Source: Escherichia coli (GTDB lineage: Bacteria > Pseudomonadota > Gammaproteobacteria > Enterobacterales > Enterobacteriaceae). From it: a stretch of DNA of 64,000 bases. The position numbers and the translations under genes were made by a program. The stretch lies in assembly GCA_902500205.1 (NCBI GenBank), contig GCA_902500205.1_4868.1, one strand, 5' to 3'. The notes under the pieces were generated by a model. It was not told the origin of the DNA, searched no databases, and was given only the letters and a program-made list of their open reading frames with translations. This document shows, piece after piece, positions 1,794 to 38,964 of the stretch (the first letter of the stretch is position 1; the number at the start of each line of letters is the position of its first letter).

Positions 1794-2335
1794 TCGTCCT
1801 CCTCAATCAGGCCAAGTTCTAACAACAAACCGAAGTCCAGCATCTGGAAGTCCTGATCGAGGTTACCGGCCCACAACAGAGAAATGTTGTGTTGCTCTTC
1901 TTCTTCCAACTGCGGGAGCAGGTGTTCTTCGAAGATTTGACGTTCTGTGTAATAAGCGTCAACCGGGTTATTGGAGCGTAAGTTACGAATACGCATCCGC
2001 GGGAATGACAAGCCCAATGCCACTAAACTTTCAGGACTGGCTTCATCAATAGAGTGACGTAGCAGTTCGATTTTGTGGCGTGGGTATGCAAGCAGTCGCT
2101 TCTCAAAGCCAGGGTTGCGCTTTTCGATTTCCGCGACAGACTCGTGTCCTTTCTCAACGCAGTAGACCGGGATCATCACATTCAGCCCGTATTTAATCAA
2201 CAGGCTTTGGATTTCATCAGTGAAGTCTTCCCCTGCCACAATTGCGTGCACATTGTACAGCTTGCTTTTGCGCAGGAAGCGATCGACCAAGTGCAGTTTA
2301 CGCTTCGTAAAATTGTGAATCAGTATTGACTTCAT
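1769..2335 (-). CDS. Hypothetical protein (about 189 aa), cluster-associated
   Basis: ORF track 1769..2413; start moved to internal Met (MKSILIHNF) which has a GGAG RBS about 7 nt upstream by my reading; no motif recognised. Confidence 0.5.
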   Translation of the reverse strand: MKSILIHNFTKRKLHLVDRFLRKSKLYNVHAIVAGEDFTDEIQSLLIKYGLNVMIPVYCVEKGHESVAEIEKRNPGFEKRLLAYPRHKIELLRHSIDEASPESLVALGLSFPRMRIRNLRSNNPVDAYYTERQIFEEHLLPQLEEEEQHNISLLWAGNLDQDFQMLDFGLLLELGLIEEDECLLLTKA

Positions 2336-3626
2336 TCTGGGCTCCGTTTTGTAATTTTTCTGCTTCAGCACGTTGGCGTACACAACGTGAACAATAGCAC
2401 ATGGATTTATCATGCAAATCTGATGCGCGGGTCGTACCAGTTTTCTGATACCAATATTCCGCCGCCATCAGCTTCGCAGTAGTCCAACCACACTGACGAC
2501 GTTCGGCGTGATACGCTTTACGGTCTTCCAGTGTACCTTCACCGTTTTCGTACGATGCTGCTGCGCAGCTACCGCAACTGTGTTTCATCGGACACCCTAA
2601 ACAGGTTTCTGGGTAGTTGGTGTACTGCGTTTGAATCTCTTCTAACAGCTTACCACCGTCCAGGCTCACAAACTCACGACCGACCAGTTCTGCTACAGCA
2701 GAACGGGAAGTTACCGTGGACATGAAACGGTTACAACCGTAAATCTTGCGATCAAAGCCGAGACAGGTCATGTGCGTCAACGTACCGCAGTACGGTTTCA
2801 GGCGTTCTGGGTCGAGACGAACAGAGTCGTCATGTAAGAGTTTGTCACGCCAATCCGGGTCCCAAGTTGCCATAAAGTTCAGGCCATCCGGGATGATGTG
2901 TGTAATCGTGTTACGCGGGTTGGTGTGCAGACCCTTCTCAATCCAGTAGTCCATCACGTCCATCATCTGGTTCGCGATATCCAACGCCATATGGCGCGGC
3001 AGGATATCTTCGTACGTTACGTTACCAGAGATGGTACCACCGCCGGACATGTCAATTAACGATTTCATGCTGGCGGCATAGTGCGGCAATGTATCGATCG
3101 TAAACGTCGCCTTTACGCCCAGCTCAGCGATGCCAACGCTCTTCAGGTAATTGTAACCGCGTACCGCAGCTTCGTACGACCCTTCACGCGTCGTGGTAAA
3201 GATACGATATTTGTCATGGACTTCAGGTAAACCATCGATGGAGACCCCAATAGACAGTTTGTCTTTCCAGCGCTCGATAATTTCTTTGTTCAGCGGTCGG
3301 TCCAGAAGTGTACCGTTCGTGGAGATACTGAACATATACGGGCGATTGTGTTCTGCGCATAACTTCTCTGCGGTTTCAAAGGCCGCCAAAAGAAGTTTAG
3401 GCTGCATGAACGGCTCACCACCGATGATATCGATGATGACTTCAACGTTCGGGATATCTTTATCGCGCTCGAAACAAGCGTGGATAAAATCAATCACGTC
3501 TGCTACTTTGTTGTTACGCGGATATTTACGCTCGTAGCAGTATTCGCAGTCCAGGTTACATGACAAGTTAGTCACAACCTGATACGTGCGTGGTGTGTAC
3601 TGGATTTGCTGTTCGCTATTACTCAT
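2298..3626 (-). CDS. Radical SAM enzyme with SPASM-type C-terminal domain (442 aa)
   Basis: N-terminal CNLDCEYC (CxxxCxxC radical SAM cluster motif); C-terminal Cys-rich segment CLGCPMKHSCGSCAA and CYCSRC typical of SPASM auxiliary cluster domains; its start overlaps the stop of the upstream radical SAM gene. Confidence 0.85.
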   Translation of the reverse strand: MSNSEQQIQYTPRTYQVVTNLSCNLDCEYCYERKYPRNNKVADVIDFIHACFERDKDIPNVEVIIDIIGGEPFMQPKLLLAAFETAEKLCAEHNRPYMFSISTNGTLLDRPLNKEIIERWKDKLSIGVSIDGLPEVHDKYRIFTTTREGSYEAAVRGYNYLKSVGIAELGVKATFTIDTLPHYAASMKSLIDMSGGGTISGNVTYEDILPRHMALDIANQMMDVMDYWIEKGLHTNPRNTITHIIPDGLNFMATWDPDWRDKLLHDDSVRLDPERLKPYCGTLTHMTCLGFDRKIYGCNRFMSTVTSRSAVAELVGREFVSLDGGKLLEEIQTQYTNYPETCLGCPMKHSCGSCAAASYENGEGTLEDRKAYHAERRQCGWTTAKLMAAEYWYQKTGTTRASDLHDKSMCYCSRCVRQRAEAEKLQNGAQNEVNTDSQFYEA

Positions 3627-4533
3627 TGTTCGCCGCCCGTTTACGCTTAGCAGAAATTACACGGTTGATGTAGTTATACGCATCAACGCCGATAGAACGC
3701 GCCAGGCGATTACAGCCGACTTCCAATATCTCTGGCGCGTTCTGAATTTGCTCCTGCGTACCGTCGGCGTTAAGCCACAGCACTTCACTGCACGTGTTGC
3801 ACTCGGTATCGAACATTTTACTGATCGCAAGCCCACATTCAGAATCGTTCTGCATGTTAAGGCGTTCGATATTGTCGAGTATTTTCCAATACCCGTACAT
3901 GAAGTTCATGACGTGGTCTGGCGATAACGGTTTCGGCATCATCGCATCAAACAGCAACGACATACCACCTGGACGGTAATGATAGATTGCTCGGTGCAGC
4001 TCGATGAAATCTTCGTACCAGCGTTTATCGCCTAACTGGTCACGCGTCATCACACCCCAGGTGTAATAGTTGTCCAGCTCGTACAGCACTTCCAGCGCTT
4101 CGTGATTACCACCGTTTACAAAGTTCATAAACGGACGTTCCGACTTCTTGTAGCCGTCAATGGACACAAAGATAAGGTCGAACTGTTTCAGCAACGGCAG
4201 ATGTGATTTACGCATCTTTAAACCGTTGGTGTACATGTGATGACGGAGGTTCGGATGAGACTCCTTCAACTCATTCACGAAGTCTTCAATCTTGCGCTGC
4301 GCTAACAGCGGCTCACCGCCCGTCCAATGAATCTCACCGATATCCGGATTCTTCTCTAAAATCGAGAGAATCTCTTCACGTTGAAACTCACGAGAAGTAT
4401 CTTCTCTATCCATGTAATAAGCCCCTCCACAGAAGCTACAGTCTAAGTTACACTTAGAAGTTGCGACAACCGACAGAATTGACGGTTTGTCGTACAGTTC
4501 AGACGAGATCCTGGATTCTACTTGATCTGTCAT
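3619..4533 (-). CDS. Radical SAM enzyme (about 304 aa), second maturase-like protein
   Basis: CNLDCSFCGG radical SAM motif; C-terminal Cys motifs (ECG...ECNTC...GC) suggest a partial or twitch-like auxiliary domain. Track start 4569 is probably a non-ATG codon; internal ATG (MTDQVES) with GGAG RBS preferred. Confidence 0.8.
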   Translation of the reverse strand: MTDQVESRISSELYDKPSILSVVATSKCNLDCSFCGGAYYMDREDTSREFQREEILSILEKNPDIGEIHWTGGEPLLAQRKIEDFVNELKESHPNLRHHMYTNGLKMRKSHLPLLKQFDLIFVSIDGYKKSERPFMNFVNGGNHEALEVLYELDNYYTWGVMTRDQLGDKRWYEDFIELHRAIYHYRPGGMSLLFDAMMPKPLSPDHVMNFMYGYWKILDNIERLNMQNDSECGLAISKMFDTECNTCSEVLWLNADGTQEQIQNAPEILEVGCNRLARSIGVDAYNYINRVISAKRKRAANNE

Positions 4534-34272: not shown

Positions 34273-34810
34273 TGAAGTGGGTTGGGTGTATCATCTGTAG
34301 TCTGGTACTAGGAGCAGGCGCATACGCCCTAGGCGCAATCCTTGCATTGACGCAAGGTTGGTTTTAACAGGAGGGTAGTTACGAAGTGGGAGAAGTATCA
34401 TGTAACAGTGAAACAGTCTCTGATCCCGTGGTCGTGGGTTCAGGGGCGGCCGTGCCAACCCGGCGTATCGTTCTTTCGAGCGCGGGGATGGCTATAGGGT
34501 CTTCAAAGAACCTTCTAGCAGACATCGCGGAAGTCTGCGGGCCGGATGATTTTGCAGTTTCACGTACAGTCGGGGAAGACTGGCGTGGTAATCAGAAGCG
34601 CCATGAGCGAATGTGGCGACGGAAGGTTACCTCAGCATCGCAGCGTTTTCAACGACGTTGTTGATCAAAGACACGGTTCCGATAGAGAACTGGTCTTTAC
34701 CTGCAGCGGTATACACCGCTTAAGTTTACCGGTAAACTTAAGAAAACACAAACGCAATTCTTCGTTACTCGCTTTCATCGCAGGTGAAAGCTCACTTAGG
34801 AATTCAGCTC

Positions 34811-35299
34811 ATGGCCGAAATTGTCATTCTTTCCTCATCTTCAGATTTAACGGAAGCACAAAATAAACAGCTGTTGGGGCTGCATTATAAATTTCTGAAC
34901 CACCAACGTACCATACTCCATATCGAAAAAGGTGAGATTCCGAACCTCACTCTGGAGAAACTGTTGGCGGGGAACCGTGCTTGTGTTGCTCTGGAAGGGG
35001 GTACCCCTGTTGGTTACTGTTTGTATCGCGTAATCGCTGGGGTTCTGAAGATTCGTACGATGTTCGTGTCTGAAATGGCACGCCGTCGCAAAACGATGAC
35101 GCAGATTTTTGATGCGCTTGATGTGAATGAACGGTTCACCAGTGCGCATGGGGGAATATACGCTTGCCAGGAAGCTGGTATTGCGTTCTTTACCGCTCGC
35201 GGTTTTGACAAGACCGTCTCTACCGACGGACAATGGCTTGAATTTACGAAGCAGGTTCTTGCGGAAGCAGATGAACCTTTAAGGACTGCGGTAGCATAG
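34811..35299 (+). CDS. Hypothetical protein (about 162 aa)
   Basis: ORF track 34784..35299; internal start MAEIVIL preferred; no confident motif. Confidence 0.5.
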   Translation: MAEIVILSSSSDLTEAQNKQLLGLHYKFLNHQRTILHIEKGEIPNLTLEKLLAGNRACVALEGGTPVGYCLYRVIAGVLKIRTMFVSEMARRRKTMTQIFDALDVNERFTSAHGGIYACQEAGIAFFTARGFDKTVSTDGQWLEFTKQVLAEADEPLRTAVA

Positions 35300-36112: not shown

Positions 36113-36535
36113 ATGGTTACCGCTATTCGCGAAACAAAATCACTATACGATCATTTATCAGAAGAAGAAACAGCCTTATTCTACGACCTGTTACCTGAAA
36201 CCAAAGCAAATGTTCAGTGGTGGTTACGTTTAGCGCTACGTGATAAAGTTGGGGAAACGCCGGTTAGTATTCTCGCCCACACGTTGGACATGACACCCAT
36301 GATTGAAATCGCGATTACCCGCCCTAAATTCTGGCGGCCTGGTATGGTGCGTGAGGCGTATCTACTCCAACGTTTAGGCGTTGACCCGGAGAAGTGTTGG
36401 CGTAAGATGGATGACCATCGCTACCGTGAAGAAATTACGAATAGCCTCAACACTATGTTGGCAATGAAACGGCTCGGTATCGAACACGAAGGTTTCGAGT
36501 CAGCGGTACATGCCTGGGCGAAAAGGAATAGCTAA
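36113..36535 (+). CDS. Hypothetical protein (140 aa)
   Basis: ORF track; AAGGAGCA RBS. Confidence 0.55.
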   Translation: MVTAIRETKSLYDHLSEEETALFYDLLPETKANVQWWLRLALRDKVGETPVSILAHTLDMTPMIEIAITRPKFWRPGMVREAYLLQRLGVDPEKCWRKMDDHRYREEITNSLNTMLAMKRLGIEHEGFESAVHAWAKRNS

Positions 36536-36784
36536 ATGCAAAAAACAATCATCGGAATAATGGTTGGTTCTTTCTGTGGCTTCCCTACCCCACAAACAGA
36601 ACCCCAATATTTGGGCGCAGGCAAACCTGATCCGGAAGTCCGTAAGTTGCGCGAAGAAGCAAAAGCCAGAGTTCTTACTGAGCTGGAATCGCTGCTTCAG
36701 TCTCCGGTTATTTCACAATGGGGTATGGCAATAGATGTCACTAGAACTGATCGACGAGGCTATTATCTCCCACGACCTGTTTAA
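36536..36784 (+). CDS. Hypothetical protein (82 aa)
   Basis: ORF track. Confidence 0.5.
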   Translation: MQKTIIGIMVGSFCGFPTPQTEPQYLGAGKPDPEVRKLREEAKARVLTELESLLQSPVISQWGMAIDVTRTDRRGYYLPRPV

Positions 36785-37235
36785 CGCGCCTGAGCGCTTC
36801 AAGGTCGTTACAGTTAACTGTGTTGGTGCGATGGGAAGGGGCATTGCCTTGGCGTGCCGAGAACGCTTCCCATCGCTTTATAACGACTATCGCCAGAAAT
36901 GTCGTAAAGAGCAAATCGTTATCGGTGAGGTCTATTGTTATCCTGAGGAAGGGGTAATACTCCTTCCTACTAAAACCCATTTTCGCTATAAATCGCAGAT
37001 TTACTATGTCACGTCCGGCATTGATGCGCTGGCGCGACTAGGGGAAGACTTAGAAGGAGGGATTGCGATACCGCCCCTAGGGATGGCTAACGGTTGGTTA
37101 CGTTACCATGAGCGATTGGAAATCTTTATACACTTACAGAAACGACTACAGCACACGGAGCAGACTTATCGATTCTATTTACCAGACACCCTGCTGAGGG
37201 AAGCAGAGAAAATCATCCCAAAAAGTTTCAAATAG
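36735..37235 (+). CDS. Macro-domain-like (ADP-ribose-binding or -processing) protein, tentative
   Basis: VVTVNCVGAMGRGIALA resembles the macro-domain N-terminal motif (V-N-A-A-N ... G-G-G-V ... A-I), and IAIPPLGMANG resembles the macro F-P-A-I-S-T-G motif; by-eye comparison only. Confidence 0.45.
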   Translation: MSLELIDEAIISHDLFNAPERFKVVTVNCVGAMGRGIALACRERFPSLYNDYRQKCRKEQIVIGEVYCYPEEGVILLPTKTHFRYKSQIYYVTSGIDALARLGEDLEGGIAIPPLGMANGWLRYHERLEIFIHLQKRLQHTEQTYRFYLPDTLLREAEKIIPKSFK

Positions 37236-37250
37236 ATATTATTATCAGGG
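37229..37250 (+). promoter_or_regulatory. Recurrent motif copy 4 (caAATAGATATTATTATCAGGG)
   Basis: Motif match upstream of the lytic transglycosylase gene. Confidence 0.4.
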
Positions 37251-37333
37251 CACATTACAAAGGAGCACAATGCCGTCCGCGCCGTCTTCCCGGATTGGGA
37301 ACGGAAAAGTATAAATCCGTTTGGAGAACATCC

Positions 37334-38056
37334 ATGTTTCGCACCATTTTATTTCTTCTGGTAGCAGTGACCACATTCAACAGCAACGCTTCTTACCAGT
37401 CCACCAGTAACAAACATCAAAAAGAATTTGTCCTTATCCAGGACCAGTTCAATGAGATTAAACCTCTCATCGTCTCTGCATCTCAAAAGCAAGGTGTACA
37501 TGCCGGGATGCTTGCGACCACCATTTACCGTGAATCCCGTTTTAATAAAAACGTGGGTAAGAATAAATCGAGCAGTGCTAGTAGTGTTGTCCAAATGACG
37601 ACAGGCACTAAACGCTCCATGATACGTCTGTATGGGAAACAACTTAACATCCCAAAGAACGCAGACCTTAATAAACCGAAATATGCTGTACAGCTTGCTG
37701 CTGTTTACATGAAACACATCGAGGATCATCTGACAAAACAACTCAAACGCAAGCCGAGCACAGCCGAAATCGCATTAGGCTACCGCTTCGGTGAGAGCGC
37801 TGCTGTTGCGATGATTAAAAAGAAATCATCGGTCGGGAAACGCTGGATGGACAGCTACCGAAAAGACGCAGCATTCTACGGTGCGAAAATGACGCCACCG
37901 AAAGCTGAAACACGTCAGCTTGCTTTTGCGAAGGAAGACCGCGACCAACACGTCGCTGAGCTTCAGAAAATCTGGGATACGCTGTACAGCAAAGTATCAC
38001 CTGCGGCCGGTACATTACTGGCAAATAACACTATCATGAAAGGAGCATTGCTTTGA
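37334..38056 (+). CDS. SLT-domain lytic transglycosylase with N-terminal signal peptide (about 240 aa)
   Basis: Signal-like N-terminus MFRTILFLLVAVTTFNSNA; catalytic-region motif TTIYRESRFN...SSVVQMTTGT matches the family-1 lytic transglycosylase E-S ... Q pattern; start moved from track 37295. Confidence 0.6.
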   Translation: MFRTILFLLVAVTTFNSNASYQSTSNKHQKEFVLIQDQFNEIKPLIVSASQKQGVHAGMLATTIYRESRFNKNVGKNKSSSASSVVQMTTGTKRSMIRLYGKQLNIPKNADLNKPKYAVQLAAVYMKHIEDHLTKQLKRKPSTAEIALGYRFGESAAVAMIKKKSSVGKRWMDSYRKDAAFYGAKMTPPKAETRQLAFAKEDRDQHVAELQKIWDTLYSKVSPAAGTLLANNTIMKGALL

Positions 38057-38697: not shown

Positions 38698-38964
38698 GTG
38701 TTCGTGAAACGTTTAATAAATTTTCTCTACTGGATGGAGAAACGCTATAGCCACAACATTCCGATGATGTACGGTTTGCTATTCTCCACGGTAATGTTGG
38801 TAATCGGTGCGATTGTCGCACATCTGATGGAACTCACGTCCCCATGGGCGCAACTCTTTCTTACCATCTGGATGTTGTTCTCAGGCTACCACGTGCGTGG
38901 TTTCATGACCCGATTCTTTCGCTGGCGTAGTACCTGGCACGTCTTTAATTCCGACCGTAACTAG
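38698..38964 (+). CDS. Small membrane protein (88 aa)
   Basis: Two hydrophobic helices (LLFSTVMLVIGAIVAHL, LFLTIWMLFSGY). Confidence 0.5.
   Translation: MFVKRLINFLYWMEKRYSHNIPMMYGLLFSTVMLVIGAIVAHLMELTSPWAQLFLTIWMLFSGYHVRGFMTRFFRWRSTWHVFNSDRN

Follow-up and report, generated by a model that had tools for sequence, protein, structure and literature searches.

Introduction

About half of chimalliviruses carry AdfM ("anti-DarT factor macro"), a macrodomain resembling that of DarG2 (Morgan et al., Cell Rep 2026, PMC13309987). The members named to that family are PhiKZ gp104, PhiPA3 gp108, Goslar gp83, and Asesino gp217 (PMC13309987). PhiKZ gp104 strips DarT2-made ADP-ribose from a TNTC oligonucleotide, an activity that is lowered by the N23A substitution (PMC13309987). 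In E. coli, the same protein relieves the toxicity of DarT2, and PhiKZ depends on it to resist DarTG2 (PMC13309987). Localization to the phage nucleus has been reported for AdfM of PhiKZ, PhiPA3, and Erwinia phage Asesino; import of PhiKZ gp104 is PicA-dependent, with a recognition that is co-evolved and phage-specific, and the PhiKZ AdfM homologue is late-expressed (PMC13309987).

Here, we analyzed a macrodomain gene in a 64-kb stretch of DNA (the whole of which is referred to below as the window) that closely matches Salmonella phage SPN3US around this gene. The gene already bears a macro-domain label in RefSeq, and its family was described in 2026, together with the mechanism, anti-DarTG2 role, and nuclear localization of that family; the analysis offers no new principle. 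The gain is a practical one, namely that "AdfM-like DNA ADP-ribosyl glycohydrolase" would be the fitting annotation in place of "hypothetical protein," "phosphatase," and "Appr-1-p processing."

The gene and the origin of the locus

The adfM-like gene, encoding a stand-alone DarG2-type macrodomain protein of 166 aa, occupies 36735..37235 on the + strand and runs from ATG to TAG in the list of open reading frames, precisely as an earlier, sequence-only reading of this DNA had placed it. The 6 kb around the gene align from end to end, at 98.4-98.1% identity, with Salmonella phage SPN3US and with the related phages SEGD1, JN03, EC001, and Proteus phage 7. All are jumbo phages of about 240 kb and belong to Seoulvirus, a genus assigned in current NCBI taxonomy to the nucleus-forming Chimalliviridae. 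Counterparts of the gene are SPN3US_0196 (GenBank JN641803), whose product is named "hypothetical protein," and ACQ60_gp070 (RefSeq NC_027402), labelled "macro domain-containing protein"; further records name it "phosphatase," "protein-ADP-ribosylation protein" (one GenBank record), or "putative Appr-1-p processing protein." Since the protein is conserved across many jumbo phages (45-81% identity), the open reading frame is genuinely coding.

When 1.84 billion representatives were searched exhaustively, 4244 relatives were returned at E ≤ 1e-3, 1074 of them at E ≤ 1e-10. The best 150 relatives included proteins of ~290-390 aa with an N-terminal macrodomain (the DarG2 architecture), proteins with a C-terminal macrodomain, and stand-alone macrodomains of ~145-185 aa. 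All source-named homologues above about 40% identity came from phage records or Salmonella assemblies, and weaker, DarG-like matches (about 31-35% identity) occurred in non-jumbo phages, e.g., SU10-like coliphages and Vibrio phage VAP7.

Seven homologues (P0037, P0038, P0042, P0043, P0047, P0050, and P0052) combined high scores with low coverage. They derive from Salmonella phages SPFM1, 8, 20, 6, 12, 14, and 15/5, and comparison with window positions 36500-37400 showed each to consist of 20-aa pieces of the macrodomain in reversed order. When the order of 60-nt blocks in the window was reversed, the odd homologues were reproduced (116/116, 104/105, and 136/145 shared 8-mers in the three tested). 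The SPFM records fit deposition with 60-nt FASTA lines in reversed order, and the block-reversal match led us to reject these seven sequences as biology and to regard them as a database artefact.

DarG-type affiliation and macro fold

The general Pfam model Macro (PF01661) matched the 166-aa protein only marginally (21.7 bits against a gathering cut-off of 22; E 2.1e-4), and precomputed PF01661 matches are present on several of its homologues. Matches to DarG were far stronger. With phmmer against PDB sequences, the protein matched the DarG macrodomains of M. tuberculosis (5m3i; E 1.9e-20) and T. aquaticus (5m31/5m3e; E 8e-19) and the Thermosipho DarTG fusion (7omu; E 1.5e-10). A family profile built from an alignment of 54 homologues (A1) gave 3.1e-56 for 5m3i, 9.6e-53 for 5m31/5m3e, and 1.1e-35 for 7omu, compared to about 1e-11 for TARG1 and 1e-7 or weaker for alphavirus macrodomains and Poa1p. 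The PADLOC DarG model matched at E 4e-32 over profile positions 6-147 of 329, and NCBIfam antitoxin_DarG (NF048014) at 107 bits (equivalog cut-off 250; E 9.7e-31) over positions 7-150 of 338. The protein is therefore affiliated with the DarG-type macrodomains, which the general Macro model barely detects and DarG-specific models detect strongly.

A single-sequence AlphaFold2 model was unusable (pLDDT 38) and was replaced by a run with the 54-sequence alignment, which gave pLDDT 93.6 and pTM 0.90. In this model, the protein is predicted to adopt the three-layer alpha/beta/alpha macro fold, with the two Gly-rich pocket loops that are also seen in its sequence. The first three ranks of a Foldseek search against the PDB were the DarG macrodomains 5m3e, 5m31, and 5m3i (E 3.7e-13 to 1.4e-11; TMt 0.80-0.83), on which the model superposed with TM 0.76-0.83; the top match, 5m3e, had E 3.7e-13, TMt 0.83, and an rmsd of 2.2 Å. 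DarTG 7omu followed at rank 4 and TARG1 at rank 5, and then viral macrodomains. At E ≤ 1e-3, the PDB gave 167 matches, of which the 50 listed all have the macro fold and are for the most part macrodomains. DarG was thus the best among macro classes in the sequence profiles, PADLOC, and Foldseek alike. The sequence-only reading had assigned a macro domain by eye, from motif similarity, and had named the lack of a macro fold as grounds for dropping the assignment; a macro fold emerged from the profile searches, the predicted structure, and the fold comparison alike, and the assignment stands.

The rank of TARG1/OARD1 as next-best relative after DarG (profile 1e-11, Foldseek rank 5) raises the alternative that the protein is a TARG1-like protein mono-ADP-ribosyl hydrolase, reversing the modification of phage or host proteins by transferases of host defence or of the phage itself. 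Such a role would agree with the catalytic Lys position that TARG1 and the window protein have in common and with the product name "protein-ADP-ribosylation protein." However, the DarG E-value is better than that of TARG1 by >40 orders of magnitude with the A1 profile, and the window protein has G-M-A-N-G, as in DarG, where TARG1 has GCGLD. The GCGLD motif holds the second catalytic residue of TARG1, D125, the position of which is not conserved in the window protein. Considering also that an ADP-ribosyltransferase was found neither in the window nor among nine neighbouring genes, and that the characterized homologue, PhiKZ AdfM, acts on DNA, we judge a protein-directed enzyme to be very unlikely.

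The inherited annotations point elsewhere again, to a small-molecule enzyme. PHROG 335, which is labelled "phosphatase," matches at E 6.6e-30, and homologues in many phage records are called "Appr-1-p processing protein," in line with the legacy "Appr-1-p processing / phosphatase" annotation. An ADP-ribose-1''-phosphate phosphatase or O-acetyl-ADP-ribose deacetylase might process RNA-repair products or ADPr-derived immune signals, and roles of this kind have been proposed for jumbo-phage Macro domains by comparative genomics (PMC7824862). These labels are names passed from record to record, however, and not tests. The similarity to Poa1p is weak, at E 0.05-0.13 without a profile (phmmer against PDB sequences; residues 21-59 only) and 3e-5 with the A1 profile (positions 5-59). 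Full-length similarity of the Poa1p type was rejected, as the match is confined to the N-terminal ~55 residues. Moreover, the DarG-type clade is the one demonstrated to act on DNA. A small-molecule substrate is, in our view, very improbable as well.

Active site and C-terminal tail

The sequence-only reading had quoted two macro-domain motifs, and both were found in the translated gene. Alignment with DarG structures and PhiKZ gp104 identified the first, V27-N-C-V-G-A-M-G-R-G-I-A38 (36813..36848, + strand), as loop 1 of the ADP-ribose pocket, and its N28 (36816-36818) aligns with N22 of T. aquaticus DarG and N23 of PhiKZ AdfM. The same alignment placed a P78-T79-K80 motif at 36966..36974 (+ strand), in which K80 (36972-36974) aligns with the catalytic Lys of T. 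aquaticus DarG, K80, and with K78 of PhiKZ AdfM; PDB chain and native numbering of DarG differ by an offset of 10 at both the Asn and the Lys. N22 and K80 of T. aquaticus DarG have been named as active-site residues (PMC13309987). The second motif, I110-A-I-P-P-L-G-M-A-N-G120, corresponds by alignment to the diphosphate-binding loop 2 (37062..37094, + strand) and is followed by W121. Residues T26, N28, G31, M33, G34, G36, A38, T79, K80, G116, and G120 are invariant in the 54 homologues of A1, and P113, P114, and L115 are kept in at least 90% of them. Since N28, K80, and the pocket residues are invariant in these homologues, the enzyme looks catalytically competent, as judged by its residues.

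Two features set the protein apart from tested enzymes. Trp121 replaces the last loop-2 Gly of DarG and PhiKZ AdfM in the clade of SPN3US and Erwinia phages (NGWL vs. NGGL). In addition, a C-terminal tail (approximately residues 150-166; 37182..37232, + strand), with a helix predicted at 151-160 by AlphaFold2 secondary structure, was delimited by alignment; it is common to Asesino gp217, is missing from PhiKZ gp104, and lies beyond the aligned part of DarG macrodomains. Because of Trp121 and the extra C-terminal helix, the substrate preference of this clade could differ from that of DarG and PhiKZ AdfM.

Together with an identity of only about 34-36% to any enzyme tested, these two features are what would speak for another nucleic-acid target, such as RNA that carries ADP-ribose or a modified base that is not thymine, by which the protein would counter a defence other than DarTG2. 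The catalytic residues and overall pocket motifs are DarG-like, though, Morgan et al. counted the Asesino orthologue among the AdfM proteins (PMC13309987), and nothing points to a different substrate. We regard this target as likewise very improbable; all three alternatives are disfavoured by the gap between the scores of DarG and those of other macro classes.

Orphan architecture

At 166 aa, compared to about 330-370 aa for full DarG2, the protein is missing the C-terminal DarT-binding domain of DarG. No DarT2 toxin gene was detected in the 64-kb window by tblastn of P. aeruginosa DarT2 (best E 2.2). Pfam searches of nine neighbouring open reading frames gave no ADP-ribosyltransferase or DUF4433 domain, and among the genes that SPN3US records name over the part matching about positions 1-49,900 of the window, an ADP-ribosyltransferase is likewise missing. 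Since neither a DarT toxin nor the DarG C-terminal domain is present, the protein is best described as an orphan, antitoxin-like counter-defence enzyme.

Two other arrangements were considered and rejected. A full-length DarG2 antitoxin of a toxin-antitoxin operon would have both a C-terminal half and an adjacent darT, and both are missing. A phage-borne toxin-antitoxin pair, or an ADP-ribosyltransferase/macro "toggle," fails on the lack of DarT in the window and of an ADP-ribosyltransferase among the nine neighbours.

Orthology with AdfM

The closest of the named AdfM proteins is Asesino gp217 (YP_009290835.1), with 69.3% identity over all 166 aa. The two loci also have a common gene order: an acetyltransferase, several small open reading frames, the macro gene, and the SLT transglycosylase. 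PhiKZ gp104, for which the query was a translation of the sequence printed in PMC13309987, is 36% identical (E 2e-25). In light of the identity and synteny with Asesino gp217 and the similarity to PhiKZ gp104, the window gene is an orthologue of the published AdfM, i.e., a stand-alone DarG2-like macrodomain that is encoded by a chimallivirus and is homologous to PhiKZ gp104; identity to any enzymatically tested relative is only about 34-36%. In the article text of the AdfM paper, SPN3US is not found by name (PMC13309987). The sequence-only reading had supposed that a phage macro-domain protein could counter host ADP-ribosylating defence and had suggested DarT-type toxins for an assay. The link to DarT matches what was found, in that the closest relatives are DarG macrodomains and that Asesino gp217 and PhiKZ gp104 are published AdfM anti-DarT2 factors.

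Neighbouring genes

Immediately upstream, an 82-aa open reading frame (SPN3US_0195; 36536-36784, + strand) extends 50 nt into the start of the macro gene and has no Pfam match. An unannotated counterpart, 43% identical, lies upstream of Asesino gp217 and overlaps the gp217 start by 47 nt. Since the overlap is kept in the window and in Asesino, the arrangement suggests that the 82-aa frame and the macro gene may be translationally coupled.

Downstream lies an SLT-domain transglycosylase gene ("putative endolysin"; 37295-38056, + strand; Pfam SLT 1.5e-6), the start of which is annotated in three different ways across records. When it is read from the ATG at 37334, the N-terminus, MFRTILFLLVAVTTFNSNAS, looks like a signal peptide. 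A 43-aa open reading frame on the minus strand (SPN3US_0197; 37245-37376) overlaps the transglycosylase start and is probably spurious.

Farther downstream, an 88-aa open reading frame (38698-38964, + strand) has a sub-threshold match to DUF4231 (E 8e-4; 20.2 bits vs. a cut-off of 24.7). Relatives of DUF4231 include the SLATT domains, two-transmembrane effectors in bacterial conflict systems, and the match, if real, would be unexpected for a phage. On the other side of the macro gene, a GNAT-type acetyltransferase (34784-35299, + strand; Pfam Acetyltransf_1, 20.9 bits vs. a cut-off of 20.7) lies a few genes upstream, a placement that is kept in both SPN3US and Asesino. Two adjoining radical SAM domain genes (ACQ60_gp103 and gp102; about 2300-4415, minus strand) stand beside the virion structural block, according to the SPN3US annotation.

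Discussion

The evidence argues strongly that the gene at 36735..37235 encodes an orphan, antitoxin-like enzyme of the DarG2 macrodomain type, an AdfM orthologue that very probably reverses DarT2 thymidine ADP-ribosylation of phage DNA. DarT2 of the host draws on NAD+ to place ADP-ribose on the thymidine of TNTC motifs where phage DNA is single-stranded, a modification that blocks replication and packaging. The phage macrodomain would hold the ADP-ribose in the pocket formed by loops 1 and 2, and the Asn28/Lys80 pair would hydrolyze the thymidine-ADP-ribose bond, restoring unmodified DNA. Since the C-terminal domain with which DarG binds DarT is missing, the protein should act only enzymatically and not by sequestration of the toxin. 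By analogy with its Asesino orthologue, the protein probably enters the phage nucleus, which holds the DNA. We infer the DNA substrate, the anti-DarTG2 role in vivo, and the nuclear localization from the relatives of the window protein.

A variant of this proposal is that the clade of SPN3US and Erwinia phages has shifted in substrate, to some other base or nucleic acid that bears ADP-ribose, and counters a defence other than DarTG2, in which case the 82-aa open reading frame upstream could encode a functional partner. We consider such a shift to be as improbable as the TARG1-like alternative, and prefer reversal of DarT2 modification on phage DNA.

With regard to expression, a scan for sigma-70 promoters around the gene gave 8, compared to 5.7 +/- 2.8 in shuffled sequence, which is not above expectation; the sigma-70 model is inapplicable to this phage. 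Since the phage uses its own RNA polymerases, the scan is uninformative as to early or late timing. The sequence-only reading had put the gene in the early region, a label for which we found no support and with which the late expression of the PhiKZ homologue (PMC13309987) may be compared.

If the proposed activity is correct, the anti-DarTG2 enzyme known from PhiKZ and Asesino would also be present in SPN3US-type jumbo phages of Salmonella and E. coli. Its presence could be relevant to predicting host range when SPN3US-type phages are applied to DarTG2-bearing enterobacteria; a literature search on DarTG2 in Salmonella found nothing specific.

Comparison with known systems

Among described systems, the window protein is most like AdfM, both being stand-alone, DarG2-like macrodomains (about 160-166 aa) that are encoded by Chimalliviridae and have the conserved Asn and Lys. 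It differs from PhiKZ AdfM in having Trp121 in place of the loop-2 Gly and a longer C-terminal helix, whereas PhiKZ AdfM has an insertion before loop 2 that the window protein does not. DarG2 of DarTG2 (5m31, 5m3e, 5m3i; NF048014) provides the best sequence and structure matches, with the same macrodomain fold and active-site residues; unlike DarG2, however, the window protein corresponds to the N-terminal macro half only, has no adjacent darT, and is encoded by a phage and not in a toxin-antitoxin operon.

The resemblance to TARG1/OARD1, the human terminal ADP-ribose glycohydrolase (4j5q-4j5s), lies in the macrodomain subclass and in a catalytic Lys after the central strand. Identity is 16%, with E about 1e-11 by profile, and TARG1 is eukaryotic and protein-directed. 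Finally, AdfN (phage NADAR orphan antitoxins against DarTG1), AdfA, and AdfB are, like the window protein, phage-borne antitoxin-like or inhibitor proteins directed against DarT (PMC11825919). Their folds are unrelated to the macrodomain, being NADAR or those of non-enzymatic inhibitors, and AdfN is specific for guanine-linked ADP-ribose and has no effect on DarTG2 (PMC11825919).
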